Of a DNA stretch of 64,000 nucleotides, positions 32,390-43,838 are shown piece by piece. Numbering within the stretch: position 1 is the first letter of the stretch; the number at the start of each line of letters is the position of its first letter. The DNA is from Neodothiora populina (lineage: Eukaryota), in assembly GCF_041146345.1 (NCBI RefSeq), contig NW_027191402.1, forward strand, positions 124,001 through 188,000, in the 5' to 3' direction. The notes under the pieces were generated by a model, which did not search any database, was not told the origin of the DNA, and was given only the letters and a program-made list of their open reading frames with translations. The position numbers and the translations under genes were made by a program.

Positions 32390-34945
32390 CTAGTCTTTCT
32401 TGAAGAAATAAACGTACGCGAACCGACTCATCTCGACCGCGTCCCCTCCGAGTGCGACTTTCTCGTCGTTGAACAGGATCCATTCTCCCTTTGCCTCTGC
32501 TCCCTTGCTGTCATCCGTGGTCTTGTTGGCCTGCTCTTTGCGTACGAATGCGACGTAATGTCCTGCGTGGATCGAGGCGCCCTTGTGGCAGACGATTGCC
32601 TGCAGGGAGAATTTGGCTGGGCGGGTGTCTTCCTTTTGGGGTTCCGGTTCTTGCGCTGATGGGAGTTGGGTCGCCTGGGTTTCGTTGTTAGCTTGTTTCA
32701 ACTGTGCAGAAGATGGAAAGAAATAGAGAAGACTCACGTTGTCACTACCTCCGAAATCACCTTCGGCTTCGGGGTGATTGAACAACCAATCGACTGCTCT
32801 CTCGACGTCGCCTCCGGTCTCTTTGAGCGCCTGTCGGCCCTGAGGCACGGAAAAGCCCATTGCGGATAACATTTCTAGTTTGTCCTCTGTGACTACTTCT
32901 TCGCCTCCTGATGCTGCGCCCGACGATGAAGAAGAAGCGTTGAAGTCGACGGGATCGTCGATGTCCGCGTCTTCCATGTGCTCGAACAGCCAGCCCGTGG
33001 CCGCCTCGGGGTCTTGGTTCCCTGTGGCGTGAAGCGCTTTTTCACACCTCACGCGGGGAAATCCCATGGCTTCTAGCATGCTCAGGGCGCCTTCGTTGGG
33101 CACCCAGGCTGCAGCTGTTGGCGCGCTGGCATCATCTCCGGGCAGTTCTTCCTCGTCTGCTTGGCGGCCGGGGCTGCGATAGCTCTCAAAGTCCAGCGAG
33201 CCTTCGTCCACGATGACGGGCACGTCTTGCTTCGTCGGCACCCAGTTCACCAGCTCGAATCGGCGGGCGTTGATCGCTAGGACCGAGGGGAAGGATTTGA
33301 ATAGTGATTGTTTTGTGAATCCCGACTTGCCGCAAGACGAACATTCCAGCTCGACGACTTCTGCGGCTGTGAACTCGTCGAGACATTGCTTCAGCGTTAC
33401 AGGCTCGAATTGGACGGGTCCCGGCTCCGCTGCGGGCTTGGTATCGTTTCCGGTCGGGTCTGGTGTCGTGTTTTCCATTTCGGTGTCCTTCTGGATCCTC
33501 TTGACGGGCACGGCGACAGAGATGTTTTCCATTTCGTCTTGGCGGTAGCGGACTTTCTTGCAGTTCAGGCACTGGAGTTTCTGCTCCATGACAAATCGCA
33601 GAGAATCGACGGGATCGGTGATGTTCGAGTATTGAGCCTTGGCTGCGTTTTGCGAACGCGAGATTAGTTTGAGGATATGCAGAAGAAACTCAAAGGCGTC
33701 CTGCTGGCGCATGGTGGAAAACTCCGAGTGTCCTCTGCCCACGAGATGCTTCAGCATGGCAGGGGCTATTCCCTTCTGATAAGTCTGGTGCTCTGAGTAG
33801 TCGTCTCCTGCAGGCACGACGTCCGAGTCTGGCTTCGCGTAGCGGCCCGAAAGCAGACCGTCCGCCACCTTGCGCAACTGAATCTCGAGGTCTTCGGCAG
33901 GAGTTTGAGTGAAGGGCAATTTCTCCGAGGGACGGTAGTATCTCGAAGCGAAGTCAGGGAACGAGAACAGACTCTGCATGACACTGTTGAGGTAGCAGCT
34001 GTTGCCCAGATTCTTGAGTCCAGTCAGGCCCGGGCCAAACATGGGCTTGAGTTCCCTGCCGTCCTGCGTAGTCATGTTGAACTCCCACCTGAGGTTCTGT
34101 TCGATGTTCATCTCGGTCAGACTCTTCTCCGTCTTTTGCCTTGCGGCGATATCGATGCCCCAGTGGGCGAGATGGGCGACCAGCTCGGGATCCGTCTTCT
34201 CGTCATTGCAGGCGTAGCAGTAGATGTCGGCGTTTCCATCCGCGGTCAGACTGCCCAGCTTGACGGCGACAGGGTGACCGGTAGAGTCTGTGTGGGAGAC
34301 GCCGTGTGAATTGCCGCCGACGTCGCTGCCGAACTGCTTCCTTCCGCAACCCAGATTGCCGCAAGTCAAGCACAGCCAGAGATTCTCCCGCAGGTCGCAC
34401 ATGCTGCAGTGACCCAGCTCTCCGCTGTCTATCTGACGTGGCGCCTCCTGCTCGAGACAGAGCGCGTGCTCACAGGGGATCATCTCCTGCTCCCACGCCT
34501 TGACCTCCTCTTGCCTTGCGAATGTGTTGGCCTTGAGCACTCCATCGACGACAGCGCGCAGCCCCTCGTCTTCAACAGCGACATGGTCCGACGCGCACTC
34601 GTAGCACCTGACCCGGGTCCGAGTATCGTATCTGTCCTCGTCGGTCTCGGCGGTGATGGCGAGCTTGCTGATCTTGGCTGGCGGTTCCGTGTCTCTGAGC
34701 TTGCGCTTGCGTGTGCGGCGGATGTTCAGAGCGAGAGGGTGGTGGGCGGCGTCGGCGTGGTCTCGTGCGTGGTGGCGGGCTGGTTCGCAACAGCCTCCGT
34801 TGAAGCAGTGCAGACACACATCCAGGCCGTGTGGCGAGTCGATGCTGTCGAAGCAGAGGGTGCAGTCTTCGCGGTATACTGATTGTGTGGCCTTGGGCGG
34901 GGCCAGGGACGCCGTGGCCAGGTGAGGACAGTCCGTCGTGGCCAT
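32390..34945 (-). CDS. UBP14: Ubiquitin C-terminal hydrolase 14 (USP5/13 family; ZnF-UBP, USP, two UBA domains)
   Basis: Start MATTDCPHL inferred at 34945. ZnF NLWLCLTCGNLGCGR, Cys box GLKNLGNSCYLNSV, QQDAFEF, His box HKGASIHAGHYVAF, UBA MGF motifs. Probable 63-nt intron 32737-32675. Confidence 0.96.
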   Translation of the reverse strand: MATTDCPHLATASLAPPKATQSVYREDCTLCFDSIDSPHGLDVCLHCFNGGCCEPARHHARDHADAAHHPLALNIRRTRKRKLRDTEPPAKISKLAITAETDEDRYDTRTRVRCYECASDHVAVEDEGLRAVVDGVLKANTFARQEEVKAWEQEMIPCEHALCLEQEAPRQIDSGELGHCSMCDLRENLWLCLTCGNLGCGRKQFGSDVGGNSHGVSHTDSTGHPVAVKLGSLTADGNADIYCYACNDEKTDPELVAHLAHWGIDIAARQKTEKSLTEMNIEQNLRWEFNMTTQDGRELKPMFGPGLTGLKNLGNSCYLNSVMQSLFSFPDFASRYYRPSEKLPFTQTPAEDLEIQLRKVADGLLSGRYAKPDSDVVPAGDDYSEHQTYQKGIAPAMLKHLVGRGHSEFSTMRQQDAFEFLLHILKLISRSQNAAKAQYSNITDPVDSLRFVMEQKLQCLNCKKVRYRQDEMENISVAVPVKRIQKDTEMENTTPDPTGNDTKPAAEPGPVQFEPVTLKQCLDEFTAAEVVELECSSCGKSGFTKQSLFKSFPSVLAINARRFELVNWVPTKQDVPVIVDEGSLDFESYRSPGRQADEEELPGDDASAPTAAAWVPNEGALSMLEAMGFPRVRCEKALHATGNQDPEAATGWLFEHMEDADIDDPVDFNASSSSSGAASGGEEVVTEDKLEMLSAMGFSVPQGRQALKETGGDVERAVDWLFNHPEAEGDFGGSDNVSLLYFFPSSAQLKQANNETQATQLPSAQEPEPQKEDTRPAKFSLQAIVCHKGASIHAGHYVAFVRKEQANKTTDDSKGAEAKGEWILFNDEKVALGGDAVEMSRFAYVYFFKKD

Positions 34946-35280
34946 TCTTCTCGTCGTTGGGGGAAGTCTGAGGATGGAAAGGAGAGTCAAAGGTAAAGAC
35001 AGACAGGATATACAGATGCACACTTGATTGGATACTGACAATCATTCAATCAATCAGTCAGTCAATCAAGAAAGAAAGAAAGTTGCATCTGCGGAGGGGG
35101 CGGTGAGTCGCACATCGCGGGGCAGTCGCGTCTTTTTGCCAGATGACGTATATGATCCATATAACACGGGCAATCAACATACACAGATGGTACCTTGGAT
35201 ACAATAACATGGCGTGCATGATGTTTGCAGACTAGAACACTTTACCGTGCTTGATATACAAAGTCACACGAGGGACACCC

Positions 35281-37258
35281 TCAGTTCACAAACAAGCTGT
35301 CGCTGTTGTCCGACAACGTGTACTGCTGGATCAGCTCCGCCAGCTTCTTGGCCTCGTTGGCGTAGTTCAGAGGCGCCGCCGAAGACACTTGATATCGCAC
35401 CCTGTCGTTGCTTGTCAGCACCATGCTCACTCGTCTCCATCATTCCACACATACCTCTGCTGGTCCTGGAACGTGTCCATCTTGGCTCTGCATCTGAACA
35501 GCAGCGTCTTGCAGTTGGCCTCTGCAAAAGCCTCCGTCGCTGCTCTCTCGTCCTCCTCCCTCATCTGCATGACATCGTTGGCCGGCATGCCCATGATGAT
35601 CCTGCCCACCTCGTCGAAGCAGCTCAGCCACATCTGCCCCGTGTGGTCGCTGACATTGACGCTCATGATGTATCTGTAGTCTGGACGATCATGCGTCTTG
35701 TCGCACTTTTCACAACGCCACTCGCCAGGCTCCGTCTCCACCACCTTCTTGTTGCAGCCCTCGGACAGACAAGCCGGGTAGCAGAAGTTGTCCTGCTTGA
35801 CGTAGATGATGGTGCCCTTGACGCTGAAGTACTCGGCCTGTTCGCTCATGCCCAGGTTCTCGTCCTTGATCTGTGCGATGCTCTTGTATTGATCGTTGCG
35901 TCCGCTGGCTCCGCTCGTGCTGCCCATCGTCTGCGCGTGTGACTGGAAATTGTCGTTGCGTCCCTGTGCCTCGTACCAGCCCTTGAGCTTGTGTGACTCG
36001 TCAATGTCTGGGTTCACATTCATCGTACCCGACGACAGGAGCGACAGGCTCCTTCCACCGAAATCCGACACCTTGACGCCCTTGAACGCCACCACGCTCT
36101 CCAGAGGCACATCGAATGTTTGTGCCGTCTTGCCCCACACCGTCAGACGCACGCTGTAGCCTGTGTTGTCGACGAGGGTGAGCTCTCGCTTGTTGTATGG
36201 TTTTGCACTGCTCTTGCCGATAATCTCAGACACCTCGCCCGTCTGTTGGAGAATGCCAATCGTGTCGATCGTCGTGTCCTTGTCTATCGTCTGCAAGTCT
36301 GACAGAGTGGTGAAGTTGTACTTGACCTGCGGCACACCCTCGCTGTCCTCGGCCTTTTCAATATGAGTGTCACGCTCGAATGTCATCTCGTAGTCGTTGT
36401 TGACGTTGGAGAACTGCTTCTTGGCGGGCTGGATTCTGCAAGGCGACGAGACGTAGTAGACGGACCCTTCTTGCAGCACGTCATACCACGAGTCCACGGC
36501 GTCGTTGAAGCCAGTGGCGCGGATCTCACCACTCTCGTCGAGCAAGTTGACGCTGAAGAGCTTGCCTTCGCCGTTCTTGTTGTGCCATGTCTTGATTTCG
36601 CCCTTGCTTGTCACTCTTGCCTTGATCGTCCACTTGTGTGCGTAGGGCGAGAGCGCTTCGATCGGGTAGATGTTGGCGTGCGAACCACCGCCACCGGCTC
36701 CGTTGGATCGTGACGGCAGGTTTCGCTGCGGCGCTTGCTGCTGTGGTTGCTGTGCAGGCTTGTTGCCATAAAAGTTACTGCCAGAAATGCCTGCTGGCTG
36801 CTGCTGGTGAGGAGCAGCGGGGGATCCTGTGTCTGCCTTGACAACCTCCAGTGCTTGTGGCTGGCCGAGCTTCTCGCTCTCGCCGTACTCCTCTAGCACC
36901 TCGATGTCTAGAATGACTAGGATGCTGTTGATGGAGTCAGAAACGCTCATTTCGGCAGTCAAAAGCACAACACTCACGGCTTGTCCTTGACAGAGTTGGC
37001 CTGGAACTGCTTCAGTCGACATAGAGATCCCTTCTTGAGCTTGCCCTCTTGCACGACCCAGTTCACCTGCTGTGCGATCATGCTCTGGATGAAGTTGACC
37101 GTGTCGTTGAACACGACTCTGTATCTCTCTTGTCCGGTCGCAGTCGCCTGCATCGGTTTAATCTGCACACACTGGACGATGGGGTCGATGACATCCTCGC
37201 CTGCGAAGACGCGGCGTAAGCAGCCATGGGTGATGGCTGAAAAAGCGTCGTTTGCCAT
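35281..37258 (-). CDS. RFA1: Replication protein A 70-kDa subunit
   Basis: Exons 37258-36978, 36924-35455, 35401-35281. Motifs PIEALSPYAHKWTIKARVTSK, EGKLFSVNLLDESGEIRATGF, KVSDFGGRSLS and Zn finger CLSEGCNKK...CEKC. Confidence 0.97.
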
Positions 37259-38172: not shown

Positions 38173-38969
38173 TTAGGCGGTAGCGGCGGAGGCGGTAACT
38201 GTCTCAACCTCGATCTTGGGCATCGAGGCACCGGTGCCGCCGAGGTCAGTGACCTTGGCCTTGGGGTTCTTAGTGTAGTAGTTGGAGATTGCGGACTTGA
38301 TGGCATCCTCAGCAAGCATGGAGCAATGGACTGCAAAAGAACGGGTTAGTGTCAACCCGCGAAAATGACATTAACAAGTAGTTTTCCACATACGCTTGAC
38401 AGGAGGAAGACAGAGCTCTTTTGCAATCTCGGTGTTCTTGATTCTGGCAGCCTGTTCAAGGGTCATGCCTCGAACAAGTTCAGTCAAGTAAGATGATGAC
38501 GCGATGGCCGAGCCGCAACCGAAAGTCTTGAACTTGACATCGGAGATGGTGTTGTCGTTGGGGTCAACGCGGATCTGAAGCTTCATGACATCTCCACATG
38601 CGGGTGCGCCGACGAGACCAGTGCCGACATCAGTGTCGTTCTTGGCCATGCTGCCGACGTTGCGAGGCTTGTTGTAGTGGTCGAGCAGTGCTAAGAAGGT
38701 CAGCTTTACGTCCTCAGAAAGAAAAGATGTGGCGACAACACTCTGGCTGGCAGCACAGATGTCATGTCTTAAAACAACATGTGCCAGGCCGGGCCATTGA
38801 CGCCAAGGGAGGGAAAGGACATATCTTTCTCGTGGTAGCTTCGCTTGCTGGCAACCTGTGATATTGCGGGTGCTGCAGCTCTGATGGATGATGTAAATCC
38901 AGGGCGAACCGACGTTACGAGAGCTCTTCCGGCTTGCGCTGGTGCGGTGGCGATGACTCTTCTGAACAT
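38173..38969 (-). CDS. ISU1: Mitochondrial iron-sulfur cluster scaffold IscU/Isu1
   Basis: Arg/Ser/Ala-rich presequence MFRRVIATAP; GLVGAPACGDVMKLQI, FKTFGCGSAIASSS, LPPVK|LHCSMLAEDAI. Exons 38969-38825, 38687-38394, 38330-38173. Intron 1 is read as AT-AC. Confidence 0.96.
38688..38824 (-). other. Non-canonical U2-type AT-AC intron in ISU1 (137 nt)
   Basis: GAG AAA G|ATATGTCC...GCTGACCTTCTTAGCAC|TG CTC GAC CAC TAC splices to E-K-V-L-D-H-Y, the conserved IscU motif. Confidence 0.8.
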
Positions 38970-39143: not shown

Positions 39144-39226
39144 ATCAGATAAAATCCGAACTCGGATCCGAATCTCCGCGGTACCTGCCGCAGCCAATGA
39201 CGAGCGCCGGGATGGAAATCTTATCT
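39144..39226. promoter_or_regulatory. Iron-regulatory promoter module of ISU1: SreA-type GATA site plus CBC/HapX bipartite site
   Basis: ATCAGATAA at 39144-39152 (ATCWGATAA consensus); CCAAT-N12-GAT at 39194-39213 (CSAAT-N12-RWT consensus); a second AGATAAG on the minus strand at 39220-39226. Confidence 0.68.
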
Positions 39227-40183
39227 CCACCGATGACGGCAACTTCCATCTTCTTAACTCCATCAATCACCGATGTGTTACAAGTGAGCTCCCAAGGCAA
39301 GTCCCCGTAAAAGGTGTGTAATGATACACATCTGATGCATTTCTTTCCCTCAGTTTGTGACTAATAGAGCAGCGGGATGAACCATGGCATATCGTCGATT
39401 AAAGTGTTGCGGACGATGCATAAACGGACAGGCCCATTTTCGAGTCAGCCACGGGAGCTAGAAAAAAGAATCCGAAGTATTTACTCGAGCCGGCGAATTC
39501 GGCGGATGGAGTACAGCATACCTTAATAAAACGTAGCTATCTTAGCTATCTTAGCAATTGTGCGGCGCGAGACGTCTCCCAAGGGACAGCAGCGATCCTA
39601 ATTGCAAGATGAAAAATCGTCTCAAGCCTCTGCATGGACCAAAGACACGGGCTGTCGCTCCCCTGAAAGACTTTTTTTTCCTCGGTGCGTGGTAGTGGTA
39701 CATTAGTTTAAACACTCTTTATGTTTCATCATGAAAAGGAGTGCATGTGTCTTATGCTGATGGCATATCAATGTGTTCTGTTGTACCTTGCTCATCCTGT
39801 CACGACGTGACCTCTGCAGAGCCTATGGCTTGCTACGATACTTTCTCACATAGGTGTAGTCACTGTTAAACTCCATCAATTCGATTTACCGAGCTGGTGT
39901 TTCGAGCTGTCACCGAATGTCTCACCACATCTTTGTCGTCCGCATGCAGAGAAAGTGGAACAGTCTCGGAGAGTACATGACCGCAAGTATAGTGTGACTG
40001 TCGGTGTGCATTTAACTACGGCGATTAAACCATGCGTTGTAAAGTTTCAGAACGAATATCCTCGAGCTTTGGCTTTTGGATTCTGCTCATAGGAATGTCT
40101 CGGTCAGACAATCCGAAGGTCCCCTTGTCGTAGGCAAAAGTTCACAGTACGCCTAGCTGACACAGACTGACGTTAAGCTGTCA

Positions 40184-41005
40184 TCACAGTGTCGACAGAG
40201 GTAGAGCTTGCGATGGTTCTTTGGCCGCCTCCATGGAGTGGACCCCGTTCATGCTGCAACGCACCCCCCCAACTCCACAACCTCCCTTAGTCAGTCCTCG
40301 ACAGGTCTTTCGAAGACAGAGCTCGTCGTGAACATGATACTCACAAGGATCCTCAAACCTCGGCAACACCTTCTCTCCACCATCCCCGTCCTCCCTTCCT
40401 CTCACGACCTCCAGCAACCCCCTACACAACCCACCCAAAAAGTCCAACGGGATGCGATCTCCACGCATCTCAAACGCATCAGGCTGATAAAAAGCAAGAG
40501 ACAAGTCTCCGACCAGCCTCATCATCTGCGTCTCAGGAATCAGATCAGCCAGCATCGCTTTTACGGGAATGGTTTCGTATCGCTCGCTCGTCTGCATCAT
40601 GTCGTCCACACAAGCGTTCTGTAGTCGTGCATCTCCCATCTCCCATCCGAGATTGAAAAGCCTTATCAAGTCTTTGAATCGGCCCTGGTGTTGTTCACGC
40701 AATTGTAGTGTAGTTGACCAGGAGATGTAGTCTTGGAAATCGAGGGCGTTGATCAGGGGTAAGTAGACCGTGACGTTTTGGGTGTTGCTATTGCGGGTGA
40801 CTTCTTGAACGGCGCCGAGGAAGACTTTTGATATTGAGCATATTGTTGCGTGAGGTAGTGTTAATGGCTTCTTTCCTGGTCCGATCAAGGTTGTGATGAC
40901 TTCAGACTCGTGTTCTGGCAGCTGCTGCTTCTTGACATGATAATGATGACGTTCGGCGTTGCCAGTCAGGTCGTCTGGCCCGCTGTCTTTGCTGTGCCTT
41001 GACAT
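40184..41005 (-). CDS. Divergent BTB/POZ-like domain protein
   Basis: ITTLIGPGKKPLTLPHATICSISKVF, VYLPLINALDFQDYISW, LFNLGWEMGDARLQNACVD and CEYHVH resemble the fast-evolving fungal BTB family. Confidence 0.65.
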   Translation of the reverse strand: MSRHSKDSGPDDLTGNAERHHYHVKKQQLPEHESEVITTLIGPGKKPLTLPHATICSISKVFLGAVQEVTRNSNTQNVTVYLPLINALDFQDYISWSTTLQLREQHQGRFKDLIRLFNLGWEMGDARLQNACVDDMMQTSERYETIPVKAMLADLIPETQMMRLVGDLSLAFYQPDAFEMRGDRIPLDFLGGLCRGLLEVVRGREDGDGGEKVLPRFEDPCEYHVHDELCLRKTCRGLTKGGCGVGGVRCSMNGVHSMEAAKEPSQALPLSTL

Positions 41006-41999
41006 GATGTCGATGTTACCTTAGCCAGAGTCTGATTCCCATCGAGGTTGTGAGATGCGTTCATCCGTGAAGGAAACAACAGACTACAGTCGTGACCTAC
41101 GTCTCGACAATGACATATCATAAGTTGATACATCAAGTCATGGCGAGAAATGAAGCCATCAGTCGCAGGTTGAATTACAAGTCAACTGATAATGAAGACA
41201 ATTCCTTTGTTCACAGTGACACATTCGAGTAGAAATAAAAATGCTGTTAGAAGAGTTCTATGATCTTCCTCTGCTTTGGAGGAGATTGTCTCTATGGAAT
41301 ATTGTAATATTGGGGAAAAAGGCAAACACGAGCCCATCGAAGGACCGATCAAGCCGCGGCAACGCTGATAATACAGAAAAAGAGCTCGACTTCTGGTCGG
41401 CGAGGATGAAAAGCGCACCTGAAAGCGCGAGTGGGTTGTGAATAGAAGTATCCGCTAACACAAGAAAAGTATGGCTGTTGTAACTCAATGAAATTGGTAT
41501 TCTTGCCGAAGGCTGATCGGCTTGATCGATTCGATCATGGTCGTCTCTGCGCGGTGAACGCATGCGAGAGAGGAAATTGACATAGGCGGCAAGGCAGGCA
41601 TTTCCGCCATCCTTGAGCCATGCCTTGTCTGCTATGCAAAGCGTGATTGTTGTACAACCCGCCAGAATATTTTGCCCAGAGGGTAGCCCCGATTGAAGGA
41701 GCAGCAAAAGCAAGCAGGGCGAGGACTACCTCAAGCCCGGAGAAGGGTATAATCGCTCAACAAAAGAAAACCCAGTGGCTTTTTCTTGCAGCCAGCCGAA
41801 CGCCGCACATTGCCGTCGTTTGTATCAATTTGCGCCGTGATGTAAAATATAAGGGAGGTTGATGCGGCGGCTCATCGAGAACGCCAGACATAGGAAGATG
41901 CTTGGAGGGAGTGGGACCAATGAAAGCTCCACTCGAATGGGAAAGTCCGGAACGCCTTGCTGAAAAGTGCAGTAGAGAAAACAAAAGAAATTAATGAAA

Positions 42000-43838
42000 T
42001 TAGTAAGAGAGTTGTCGGCGAAAGTGGGTCTGGCCCAAAGGCGAGTTATTGTAGTCGGGGCTGTCGAGTATGGTTTGCATGCGTCCACTAGCAGTGGGGC
42101 TGTCTTCCATATGACAGGACTGTTGTCCGAAAGCAAAGGTCTGTGCGCGGCTGAGCTTTGCTCTGTTCTGCTTGAGCATTCCCAGGCCTTTCTCGCACTC
42201 TTGCTCGTGGTTCTTGTCCTGCATCTCGACGTAGTTCTGGGGAAAGCACTTGGTTCTGTGGTTGGCAAAGAACTTGCTATAGCCACCGTCAAGGATGTAC
42301 ATCTCGGGGTAGGTAAGCTTGGGATATTGGAAGTCATTGACAGCTCGGTCGCGGTTGCGCACAAACTTGGCCATGCGAGGGGCGCGGAGCTCAGAATATT
42401 CACAGTGAAAGACAAGCAAAGTCTTGGAAGAAGGCTCGGCCTCGAACAACTTGCCGGCCAATGCTTCCTTGTCATTGAAGTTGAGAGCGCCATCGATGTG
42501 GCCTCCGTTGTATTCGTACTCGAAGCGGCAGTCGACAATGTAGATCTGGTCATAGTATGTGTTGTAGTTGCCATTGAGAATGTTGAGAAGGGTGTCTTGT
42601 TGGATGCGAGGCAGGCTGTCTGGCTCGTCATCCGGGATGAAATGGGGGAGCATGTGTTTGTACTCCTCATTGACATCCATTGCCAGAGGAGAGTTACTTG
42701 TAGCGGGCTGGTACTCTTCACTGTGGTCCTTCATCACATCGTCTGGGTGTTGGAACATGCTCAGAGAACGGCGGACCTGCTTCCTCGGCGGAAGGCGCAC
42801 CGGGGCGATCTTCTTGACGTGTGAGTTGAGCGGTGAGCCGACGTTGCGGCAGGCGAGAGACGTGCGCCTCGACGGCGGGCCGACGGGCAGGTTCATCGGG
42901 ACGGGTTTCCGGTCCGCAATCGGGGACTCGAAGCACTCGTCCAAGCTTGTTGTGGAGGCTGACGGGCCACCGAAACGAAATGTGGGAAGTTGGGAATCGC
43001 TGCTGGATGCTTTTTGAGGGACGGATGTGGTCGAGTACCCCTTGTGTCTGACCAGTCCAGGTCTACGAGCAAATCTACGCTCAAGGGGAACGGACAATGA
43101 CTCTGCACCCGAGCGACTGGCCAGCGAAGGTCTCGACACAGAGTAAGAGAAGGAATCGTCCTCGTCGTCTTCTTCGGGGGTGGGTTCGGGTGAGGGGGAT
43201 GGTAGTGTGACGTTGATGGCGACATTGTTCGCAAAGCAAGCCTGCTTATGTGGTAGCGGTGAGATGTCCATCATCAGGTCGTTGCACGGAGAGGACGAAG
43301 GGATCGGAGGCGTCGTCGTGCCTTCAAAGTCGACGGGAGGCGTGATTAGGTCATCTTTGAAATTACCGCATTAGCTTTGCAGCCGAGAGCACACCACACT
43401 TGTGGTGTTAATAACAGTAACAGTAGACCGACCTGTGTCACATGGCAACATGAAGCTCGCGCTGAACAGGGAGCGTCTAGGGGTGGGAAACTGCGGGCTA
43501 ATGGATTGTGAGCATTCGTGTCATTCCATACTCGATACTCAATACCCGTCGGCATGTGACGGAGATTGGGTGTTGTGGAATGCTGCATACCTCTGGTCGA
43601 TGTGGAAGTTTGATGACAAGTCGGCTGCCAAGCTTGACGTGGGAGAGCAACCACGTGCTGGCTTCAGAGTGAAGTAATCCGACGAGCTTTTCCTCATGCT
43701 CAACTCTTTGAAGTTGAAGCTGTTGCTGCTGAAGGTCTGGGACCCGTACATTGATCTCGAAGCTGGAAGATCGCGACGATTGCCCCACGGAGGGCATGGT
43801 GGTGGGTGCATGGCTGCCAACGGAGAAGAGAATTCCAT
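42000..43838 (-). CDS. cdc25: M-phase inducer phosphatase (Cdc25/Mih1/NimT)
   Basis: Exons 43838-43591 (MEFSSPLAAM...SPTSSLAADLSSNFHIDQ), 43497-43433, 43354-42000. Rhodanese domain IVDCRFEYEYNGGHI, active site HCEYSELRAP, YPEMYILDGGYS. Confidence 0.95.

Follow-up and report, generated by a model that had tools for sequence, protein, structure and literature searches.

The 64,000-nucleotide stretch of Neodothiora populina DNA analysed here, which we call the window, carries a gene for the Fe-S cluster scaffold ISU1. Its first intron begins with AT and ends with AC. Is this unusual junction genuine, which splicing machinery removes the intron, and does the junction regulate the gene? The original prediction proposed a U2-type AT-AC intron with a competing AG acceptor, acting as a switch on Fe-S biogenesis. 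We addressed these questions through the gene itself, through related loci in metagenome contigs, and through the gene models that databases hold for its homologues.

The ISU1 gene and the signals of its first intron

The gene is read from the minus strand and consists of three exons and two introns:

38825..38969, minus strand: ISU1 exon 1, with the ATG at 38969..38967, ending in YHEK plus the first G of a Val codon
38688..38824, minus strand: ISU1 intron 1, 137 nt, phase 1, AT-AC termini, with the same site and termini in the related loci L002 and L005
38394..38687, minus strand: ISU1 exon 2, the TG of the Val codon followed by LDHYNKPRNVG...PPVK plus C
38331..38393, minus strand: ISU1 intron 2, 63 nt, canonical GTATGT...ACTAAC...CAG
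38173..38330, minus strand: ISU1 exon 3, with the stop codon TAA at 38175..38173

The product of exon 1 is a 48-residue mitochondrial presequence that ends in YHEK, its last codons being TAC CAC GAG AAA G. Exon 2 opens with TG CTC GAC CAC TAC, the first T lying at 38687. Joining 38825 to 38687 completes a Val codon (G+TG) and gives YHEKVLDHYNKPRNVG, with the junction YHEKVLDHY. When the AT38824/AC38688 join is combined with removal of the canonical intron 2, the result is a protein of 198 aa identical to database protein P0009, which is a depositor's hypothetical protein assigned by its source to Neodothiora populina. A taxonomy check places this species in the Dothideales, Dothideomycetes. 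The identity of the gene is clear from its exon 2, which is a NifU_N/IscU domain (Pfam PF01592, E 1e-38), and from the motifs GAPACGD, FGCGSAIAS, and LHCSMLAED, which mark the translation as an ISU1/IscU Fe-S scaffold. The protein is 93-96% identical to named fungal Isu1 proteins. In Neodothiora populina itself, use of the AT-AC junction would follow from this homology and from the depositor's gene model.

The neighbours of ISU1 are ordinary, and no Pfam family matched the long ORFs at 40187-41020 and 41828-42730:

32393-35041, minus strand: UBP-type deubiquitinase (ubiquitin hydrolase) with zf-UBP and UBA domains
35430-37157, minus strand: large subunit of replication protein A (RPA)
42003-43370, minus strand: rhodanese-domain protein

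Four elements define the splicing signals of intron 1:

38819..38824, minus strand: 5' splice site ATATGT, the fungal GTATGT with G1 changed to A
38699..38704, minus strand: branch-site motif GCTGAC, with the branch A at 38700, 12 nt from the last intron base
38691..38692, minus strand: AG three bases upstream of the true 3' end, the competing acceptor of the original prediction, which is not conserved
38688..38689, minus strand: terminal AC of the intron, from a single-base check

On the minus strand the bases are A at 38824, T at 38823, A at 38689, and C at 38688, and the 3' end reads TTAG CAC. Apart from its first base, the donor is of the U2 type, being ATATGT in the window and ATAAGT in both L002 and L005. 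The branch motif is of the same type, GCTGAC in the window and GCTAAC or ACTAAC in the relatives. The distance from its A to the end of intron 1 is 12 nt in the window, 12 nt in L002, and 11 nt in L005; for intron 2 of the same three loci, it is 15, 12, and 11 nt. The coordinates and the description of the AT-AC intron in the original prediction were therefore confirmed by the minus-strand reading and the single-base check. The same holds for its claims that AT..AC splicing restores the protein exactly and that the donor is a U2 donor with G1 changed to A, followed by a U2 branch site of the CTRAC form.

In excerpts of two earlier studies, /ATAAGT is given as the donor consensus of U2-type AT-AC introns and /ATATCCTT as that of U12-type introns (PMC5029451, PMC1557818). 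Neither this U12 donor nor the U12 branch site TCCTTAAC, expected 10-15 nt from the 3' end, was found in intron 1 of the window, L002, or L005, and the window intron shows ATATGTCC and AAGCTGACC instead. Since one class of U12-type introns typically has AT-AC termini, excision by the minor spliceosome has to be considered. Against it stand the ATATGT/ATAAGT donors, the CTRAC branch motif, and the loss of U12 splicing reported for Ascomycota, including Pezizomycotina (PMC2846911). An Rfam scan of the 64-kb window matched no family, a result that says little about the genome as a whole. We consider a U12-type intron extremely improbable. Since U12 splicing is reported to be missing from this phylum, the major spliceosome would be the one that removes ISU1 intron 1.

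The junction in related loci and in database gene models

Metagenome contigs were scanned with exon 2, and 80 loci were kept. Five of them were fungal (84-92% identity), and only these were examined; the other 75 (65-75% identity) are bacterial-type by reading and were not individually checked. Two of the fungal loci are genomic, and both carry the intron:

L002 (22.7-kb contig), 1394-1498: AT-AC intron
L005, 1371-1498: AT-AC intron

Both loci have G/ATAAGT at the same phase-1 site, a CTAAC branch motif, and an AC end, the intron finishing with ...CCCCTCAC/TG in L002 and with ...CACAAAC/TC in L005. Their second intron is canonical (GTGAGT...TAG) and positioned as in the window. The named protein nearest to L005 comes from Lecanoromycetidae sp. 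(97%). The AT-AC intron is present in all three genomic loci seen, which span two classes, and the conserved phase-1 AT..AC intron that the original prediction had proposed looking for was found in both related genomic contigs.

The lengths of intron 1 and intron 2 are 137 and 63 nt in the window, 105 and 61 nt in L002, and 128 and 58 nt in L005, the first intron being about twice as long as the second. The original prediction had also called the 137-nt intron the longest of any gene model in the window. The plausible short introns in our motif scan, of about 48-100 nt, agree with this, as a rough check by an unspecific scan. As a separate observation, the AT-AC introns of L002 and L005 are markedly C-rich and G-poor, and that of L002 is nearly unstructured (MFE -0.49 kcal/mol over 105 nt).

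The remaining three fungal loci (L001, L003, and L004) are transcript-like contigs, and their junction is known from transcripts alone. All three read CAC GAG AAG GTx CTC GAC, that is, YHEK-V-LDHY. One of them, L004, groups with clean Sordariomycete-type proteins.

Database gene models provided a second view of the splice sites. We pooled 341 proteins from three protein searches and sorted them by junction. Clean YHE[KR]V[LIV]DHY junctions were found in 258 proteins, and 33 were non-fungal or had lost exon 1. The other 50 read past YHE[KR] into the intron; these models are related by descent, so that counts among them are not numbers of independent events. In a phase-1 intron such as this one, G and the first two intron bases make up the first read-through codon. 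The residue at this position is Asp (GAY, that is, G/AT) in 50 of 50 models, and Gly, as GT would give, in none. In second position, 26 of the 50 have Lys, 13 have Met, and 5 have Asn, corresponding to ATAAR, ATATG, and ATAAY. At the other end, the final read-through residue is Leu (C or T as the last intron base, followed by TG) in 49 models, and Val, which a terminal G would give, in 0 of 50. A branch-like motif (Leu-Thr or [SPTA]-[ND]) stands exactly three codons before the final Leu in 40 of the 72 non-clean models, which is 11-12 nt from the intron end.

Several read-through models have a clean counterpart. Outside the junction, the model P0033 of Botryosphaeria dothidea matches the clean P0029, which lies on a contig of 1,173 nt, at 100% identity. 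Two further read-through/clean pairs are P0080/P0075 (100%) and P0042/P0036 (99.5%). Where the ISU1 ORF runs without a break on a contig of about 1 kb, spliced RNA would be the implied source. In total, at least 71 of the 341 proteins are fungal ISU1 models with an error at this place, either a false insertion of 5-51 residues behind YHEK or a first exon that was lost or replaced, as the original prediction had expected of gene predictors. The mis-modelled entries fall within P0018-P0121 and P0241-P0343, and for several species a wrong model stands beside a right one. The best-scoring longer matches, P0003 and P0004, are a 523-aa ISU1-named protein from Symbiodinium microadriaticum and a firefly protein of 312 aa. 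Both have higher bit scores than identities of 59-72% would warrant, which suggests that they may hold more than one IscU domain or be fused models.

The names of the read-through sources indicate how widely the intron is distributed. They include Aureobasidium, Alternaria, Bipolaris, Exserohilum, Didymella, Phyllosticta, Botryosphaeria, and others, a group which we take to be Dothideomycetes. They also include Pseudevernia and Xylographa, both confirmed as Lecanoromycetes by a taxonomy check, as well as Alectoria and Heterodermia, presumably of the same class. A model from Candelina (Candelariomycetes) and two Geoglossomycete models have lost exon 1 and show the same read-through at the intron end. 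Meanwhile, a search centred on a Sordariomycete transcript returned 118 new proteins, all of them clean, and 71 of the 103 new proteins of the third protein search were clean. Clean junctions were also seen in 8/8 named entries of Chaetothyriales, 9/9 of Leotiomycetes, and 8/8 metagenome-assembled genomes of Teloschistales, the assignment of these entries to the three groups being our own assumption. The Teloschistales genomes share their locus-tag style with the mis-modelled Pseudevernia entry, which suggests that the difference between clean and mis-modelled entries lies in the DNA and not in the annotation pipeline. Judging by annotations, the clean groups would either lack the intron or have it with GT-AG termini. 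As read from these sequences, the ISU1 AT-AC intron is deeply conserved, having apparently been kept in at least two classes of Pezizomycotina.

Alternative junctions and the proposed splicing switch

An AT..AC pattern alone does not exceed chance, because a motif scan of the window gave more than 100 such hits, next to 47 GT..AG hits; many of these lie within long ORFs and the scan is unspecific. The case for the ISU1 intron goes beyond chance because the conserved junction is exactly restored and the arrangement is kept in relatives. We enumerated all combinations of GT, GC, or AT donors with AG or AC acceptors that keep the frame open into LDHY. Among the 119 in-frame and stop-free combinations, YHEKVLDHY results from AT38824-AC38688 only. 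None of the GT donors shares a frame with the AG at 38691, in agreement with the original prediction. GT donors do fit the frame of other AGs, for example 38801-38704, and then yield insertions of unrelated residues.

These insertions leave room for a canonical GT-AG or GC-AG intron as the one really used, in which case the protein would carry extra residues, such as YHEKDMSFPSLG-LTFLALLDHY from GT 38801 to AG 38704. Several combinations of this kind are open, and 50 database models of relatives were built with such an insertion. However, the insertions in those models are unlike one another and vary in length from 5 to 51 residues, and transcript-like contigs of the same species, or of one almost identical to it, show the clean junction. 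The candidate donors (GTCAAT, GTCCTT) are poor, and the sole branch motif would become exonic. A canonical intron with an insertion is very improbable on this evidence. A sequencing or assembly error is a further alternative, since one base change, a true G at 38824, would create the canonical donor GTATGT and an ordinary GT-AG intron ending at 38691. That intron would yield EKALLDHY, which occurs in 0 of 341 homologues. Two independent genomic contigs also have A at +1 and a last base other than G, and the read-through models, from many assemblies, point to A at +1 in 50/50 and to a non-G end in 49/50. We consider such an error extremely improbable.

ISU1 intron 1 is very probably a genuine U2-type ("type II") AT-AC intron that is constitutively removed by the major spliceosome. 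What our data show directly is the sequence, the exact restoration of the protein, the conserved termini and branch spacing, and the spliced transcripts of relatives; the choice of spliceosome, constitutive splicing in this species, and the account of step 2 and of a lock given below are inferred from them. During the second step of splicing, G1 and the last G of an intron interact, and an A-C pair can substitute for them. The donor of the ISU1 intron would be the normal fungal one with G1 replaced by A (ATATGT/ATAAGT), and its CTRAC branch site, also normal, would be followed at 11-12 nt by a 3' end in which C has taken the place of G. The G1-G(-1) contact of step 2 would be replaced by a compatible A1-C(-1) pair, and the nearby AG would be passed over because an intron that begins with A is incompatible with a terminal G. 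Both ends may have changed together in a shared ancestor of Dothideomycetes and Lecanoromycetes. The AT-AC state might since have been held by an epistatic lock, because reverting one end alone would leave an essential gene defective in splicing. That splicing is constitutive in Neodothiora populina is suggested by the dominance of clean junctions on the short transcript-like contigs of relatives, which come from assemblies that drop minor isoforms.

The original prediction went further and gave the AG at 38692..38691 a regulatory role. It would compete with the AC, so that the pre-mRNA is divided among AT-AC splicing, AT-AG splicing with one additional residue, and stalled or retained forms that decay, perhaps as an iron-responsive control of Isu1. 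The tandem TAG-CAC is indeed present in the window intron, and the predicted AT-AG product, EKALLDHY, is open and in frame (199 aa). Retention of the intron would leave a truncated ORF of 66 aa as a possible substrate for decay. A long and non-canonical intron has also been retained by an essential gene, and the same fungal lineage cleaves its telomerase RNA by first-step-only splicing with a distinct, non-canonical donor, as described in PMC9564094 and PMC4993307.

The comparison with relatives speaks against such a switch. No AG follows the branch site in L002 or L005. Among the 50 read-through models, the final Leu is preceded by Ala in 15, by Ser in 15, by Pro in 10, by another Leu in 7, and by Val and Thr in 1 each, and one model ends differently. 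Within Aureobasidium both Pro and Ala occur before this Leu, so that the base at -4 varies even within this genus. A G at -4 is a precondition for an AG at this place, and an AG is therefore possible in only 16 of the 50 models; in the other 34 the base cannot be G. The tandem is not supported as a conserved switch, and its AT-AG product, although open, was found in none of the 341 proteins. The window intron differs from first-step-only cleavage as well, in that its 3' end is AC, the join of exon 1 and exon 2 encodes a conserved protein, and joined transcripts exist in relatives.

A conserved intron structure was likewise not seen. The fold of the window intron has a z of -2.49, with 5 of 200 shuffles as good, and the values for L002 and L005 are +1.07 and -1.04. 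We rejected intron folding as a conserved feature, as L002 and L005 do not share the z of the window. The fold of the window intron could reflect something lineage-specific. In the predicted structure, the donor region (UAUGUCCUU) pairs with GAGGACGUA just upstream of the branch site and would bring donor and branch site together, a pairing that is not common to L002 and L005.

Taken with its supporting points, we regard the switch as unlikely. A related and similarly doubtful idea is that the AT-AC intron might be removed slowly, or in a step sensitive to proofreading, and thereby set how much Fe-S scaffold is made, with the AG of Dothideales diverting pre-mRNA to a stalled step-2 complex and from there to discard or NMD. 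If this were true, the output of ISU1 would respond to the state of the spliceosome or to iron status, and the gene would be a coding counterpart of telomerase RNA half-splicing in the same fungi.

The region upstream of ISU1 contains other candidate elements. A CCAAT box (ATTGG on the gene strand) lies at 39198..39194, and a GATA-type AGATAAGAT at about 39226..39218 in the minus-strand reading. These motifs are presumably of the kind used by CCAAT-complex/HapX and GATA-factor iron regulators. Transcriptional control by iron would be a more conventional route for ISU1. A direct duplication, GCTAAGATA-GCTAAGATA, is found about 570 nt upstream of the ATG (~39534-39556).

Known AT-AC introns and the significance of the ISU1 case

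The class of intron to which we assign ISU1 intron 1 is already known. U2-type AT-AC introns, recognised since the studies of human SCN4A and SCN5A, rank among the rarest kinds of intron and made up 24 of 608,562 U2-type introns in five model species (Sheth et al. 2006, PMC1557818). These animal introns resemble the ISU1 intron in their AT-AC termini, their U2-type donor, and their conservation over long ranges (PMC1557818). The ISU1 intron differs in that it belongs to a fungus reported to be without a minor spliceosome and is a short intron of the fungal type, with a CTRAC branch site 11-12 nt from its end; its dependence on the U1, U2, U4, and U6 snRNAs is a prediction.

In filamentous fungi, AT-AC II introns have been hypothesised for xylanase genes, as mentioned in Sheth et al. 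(2006, PMC1557818). From that mention, which is the sole source of our comparison, these would also be U2-type AT-AC introns of filamentous fungi, in other genes. In fungal annotations at large, AT-AC introns are very rare and appear mostly as a line in genome-wide statistics (PMC7072748). A nested AT-AC intron in yeast RPL30 was described as the first endogenous yeast case, and it gives a side product of 1-2% (Gould et al. 2016, PMC5029451). In both RPL30 and ISU1, the AT-AC junction is endogenous and the fungus is one without a minor spliceosome. However, the RPL30 donor is unlike /ATAAGT, whereas the ISU1 donor is consensus-like and its intron is the sole route to the protein.

The pairing logic that we propose has a laboratory precedent. 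In S. cerevisiae, a change of G1 to A at the donor was reportedly rescued by a change of G to C at the last intron base, in work attributed to Parker and Siliciano in 1993. Splicing of an engineered AT-AC intron in yeast is stated in a passage of PMC5029451, which cites Parker and Siliciano 1993. The yeast intron and the ISU1 intron would follow the same step-2 pairing logic. The former is a laboratory construct, whereas the latter is natural, conserved, and located in an essential gene.

Telomerase RNA offers a comparison within the same lineage. Its donor in Pezizomycotina is reported to be AUAAGU, a finding attributed to Qi et al. in 2015, and would thus be of the same A-initiated kind as that of ISU1. 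Maturation of the telomerase RNA of filamentous ascomycetes proceeds by first-step-only splicing with a distinct donor, according to PMC4993307 and PMC9564094. There the second step is blocked and the freed 5' exon is the product, whereas the AC end of the ISU1 intron is predicted to allow both steps and to lead to an mRNA.

Full-text literature searches for AT-AC introns in ISU1 and in Pezizomycotina, the papers for the latter being judged by title or abstract and most subscription journals lying outside the coverage, found no report of an AT-AC intron in ISU1. The intron class is known, and the ISU1 intron is a new and unusually well-conserved case of it.

These findings have implications beyond the single gene. 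With both compensating ends present in an essential, single-purpose gene, the ISU1 intron is a natural and testable example of the A1-C(-1) pairing rule of step 2. It is found in the lineage that halts the splicing of telomerase RNA halfway by combining an A-initiated donor with an AG. For Dothideomycetes and lichen fungi, meanwhile, the wrong ISU1 models affect orthology, the prediction of presequences, and any modelling of the Isu1 structure.
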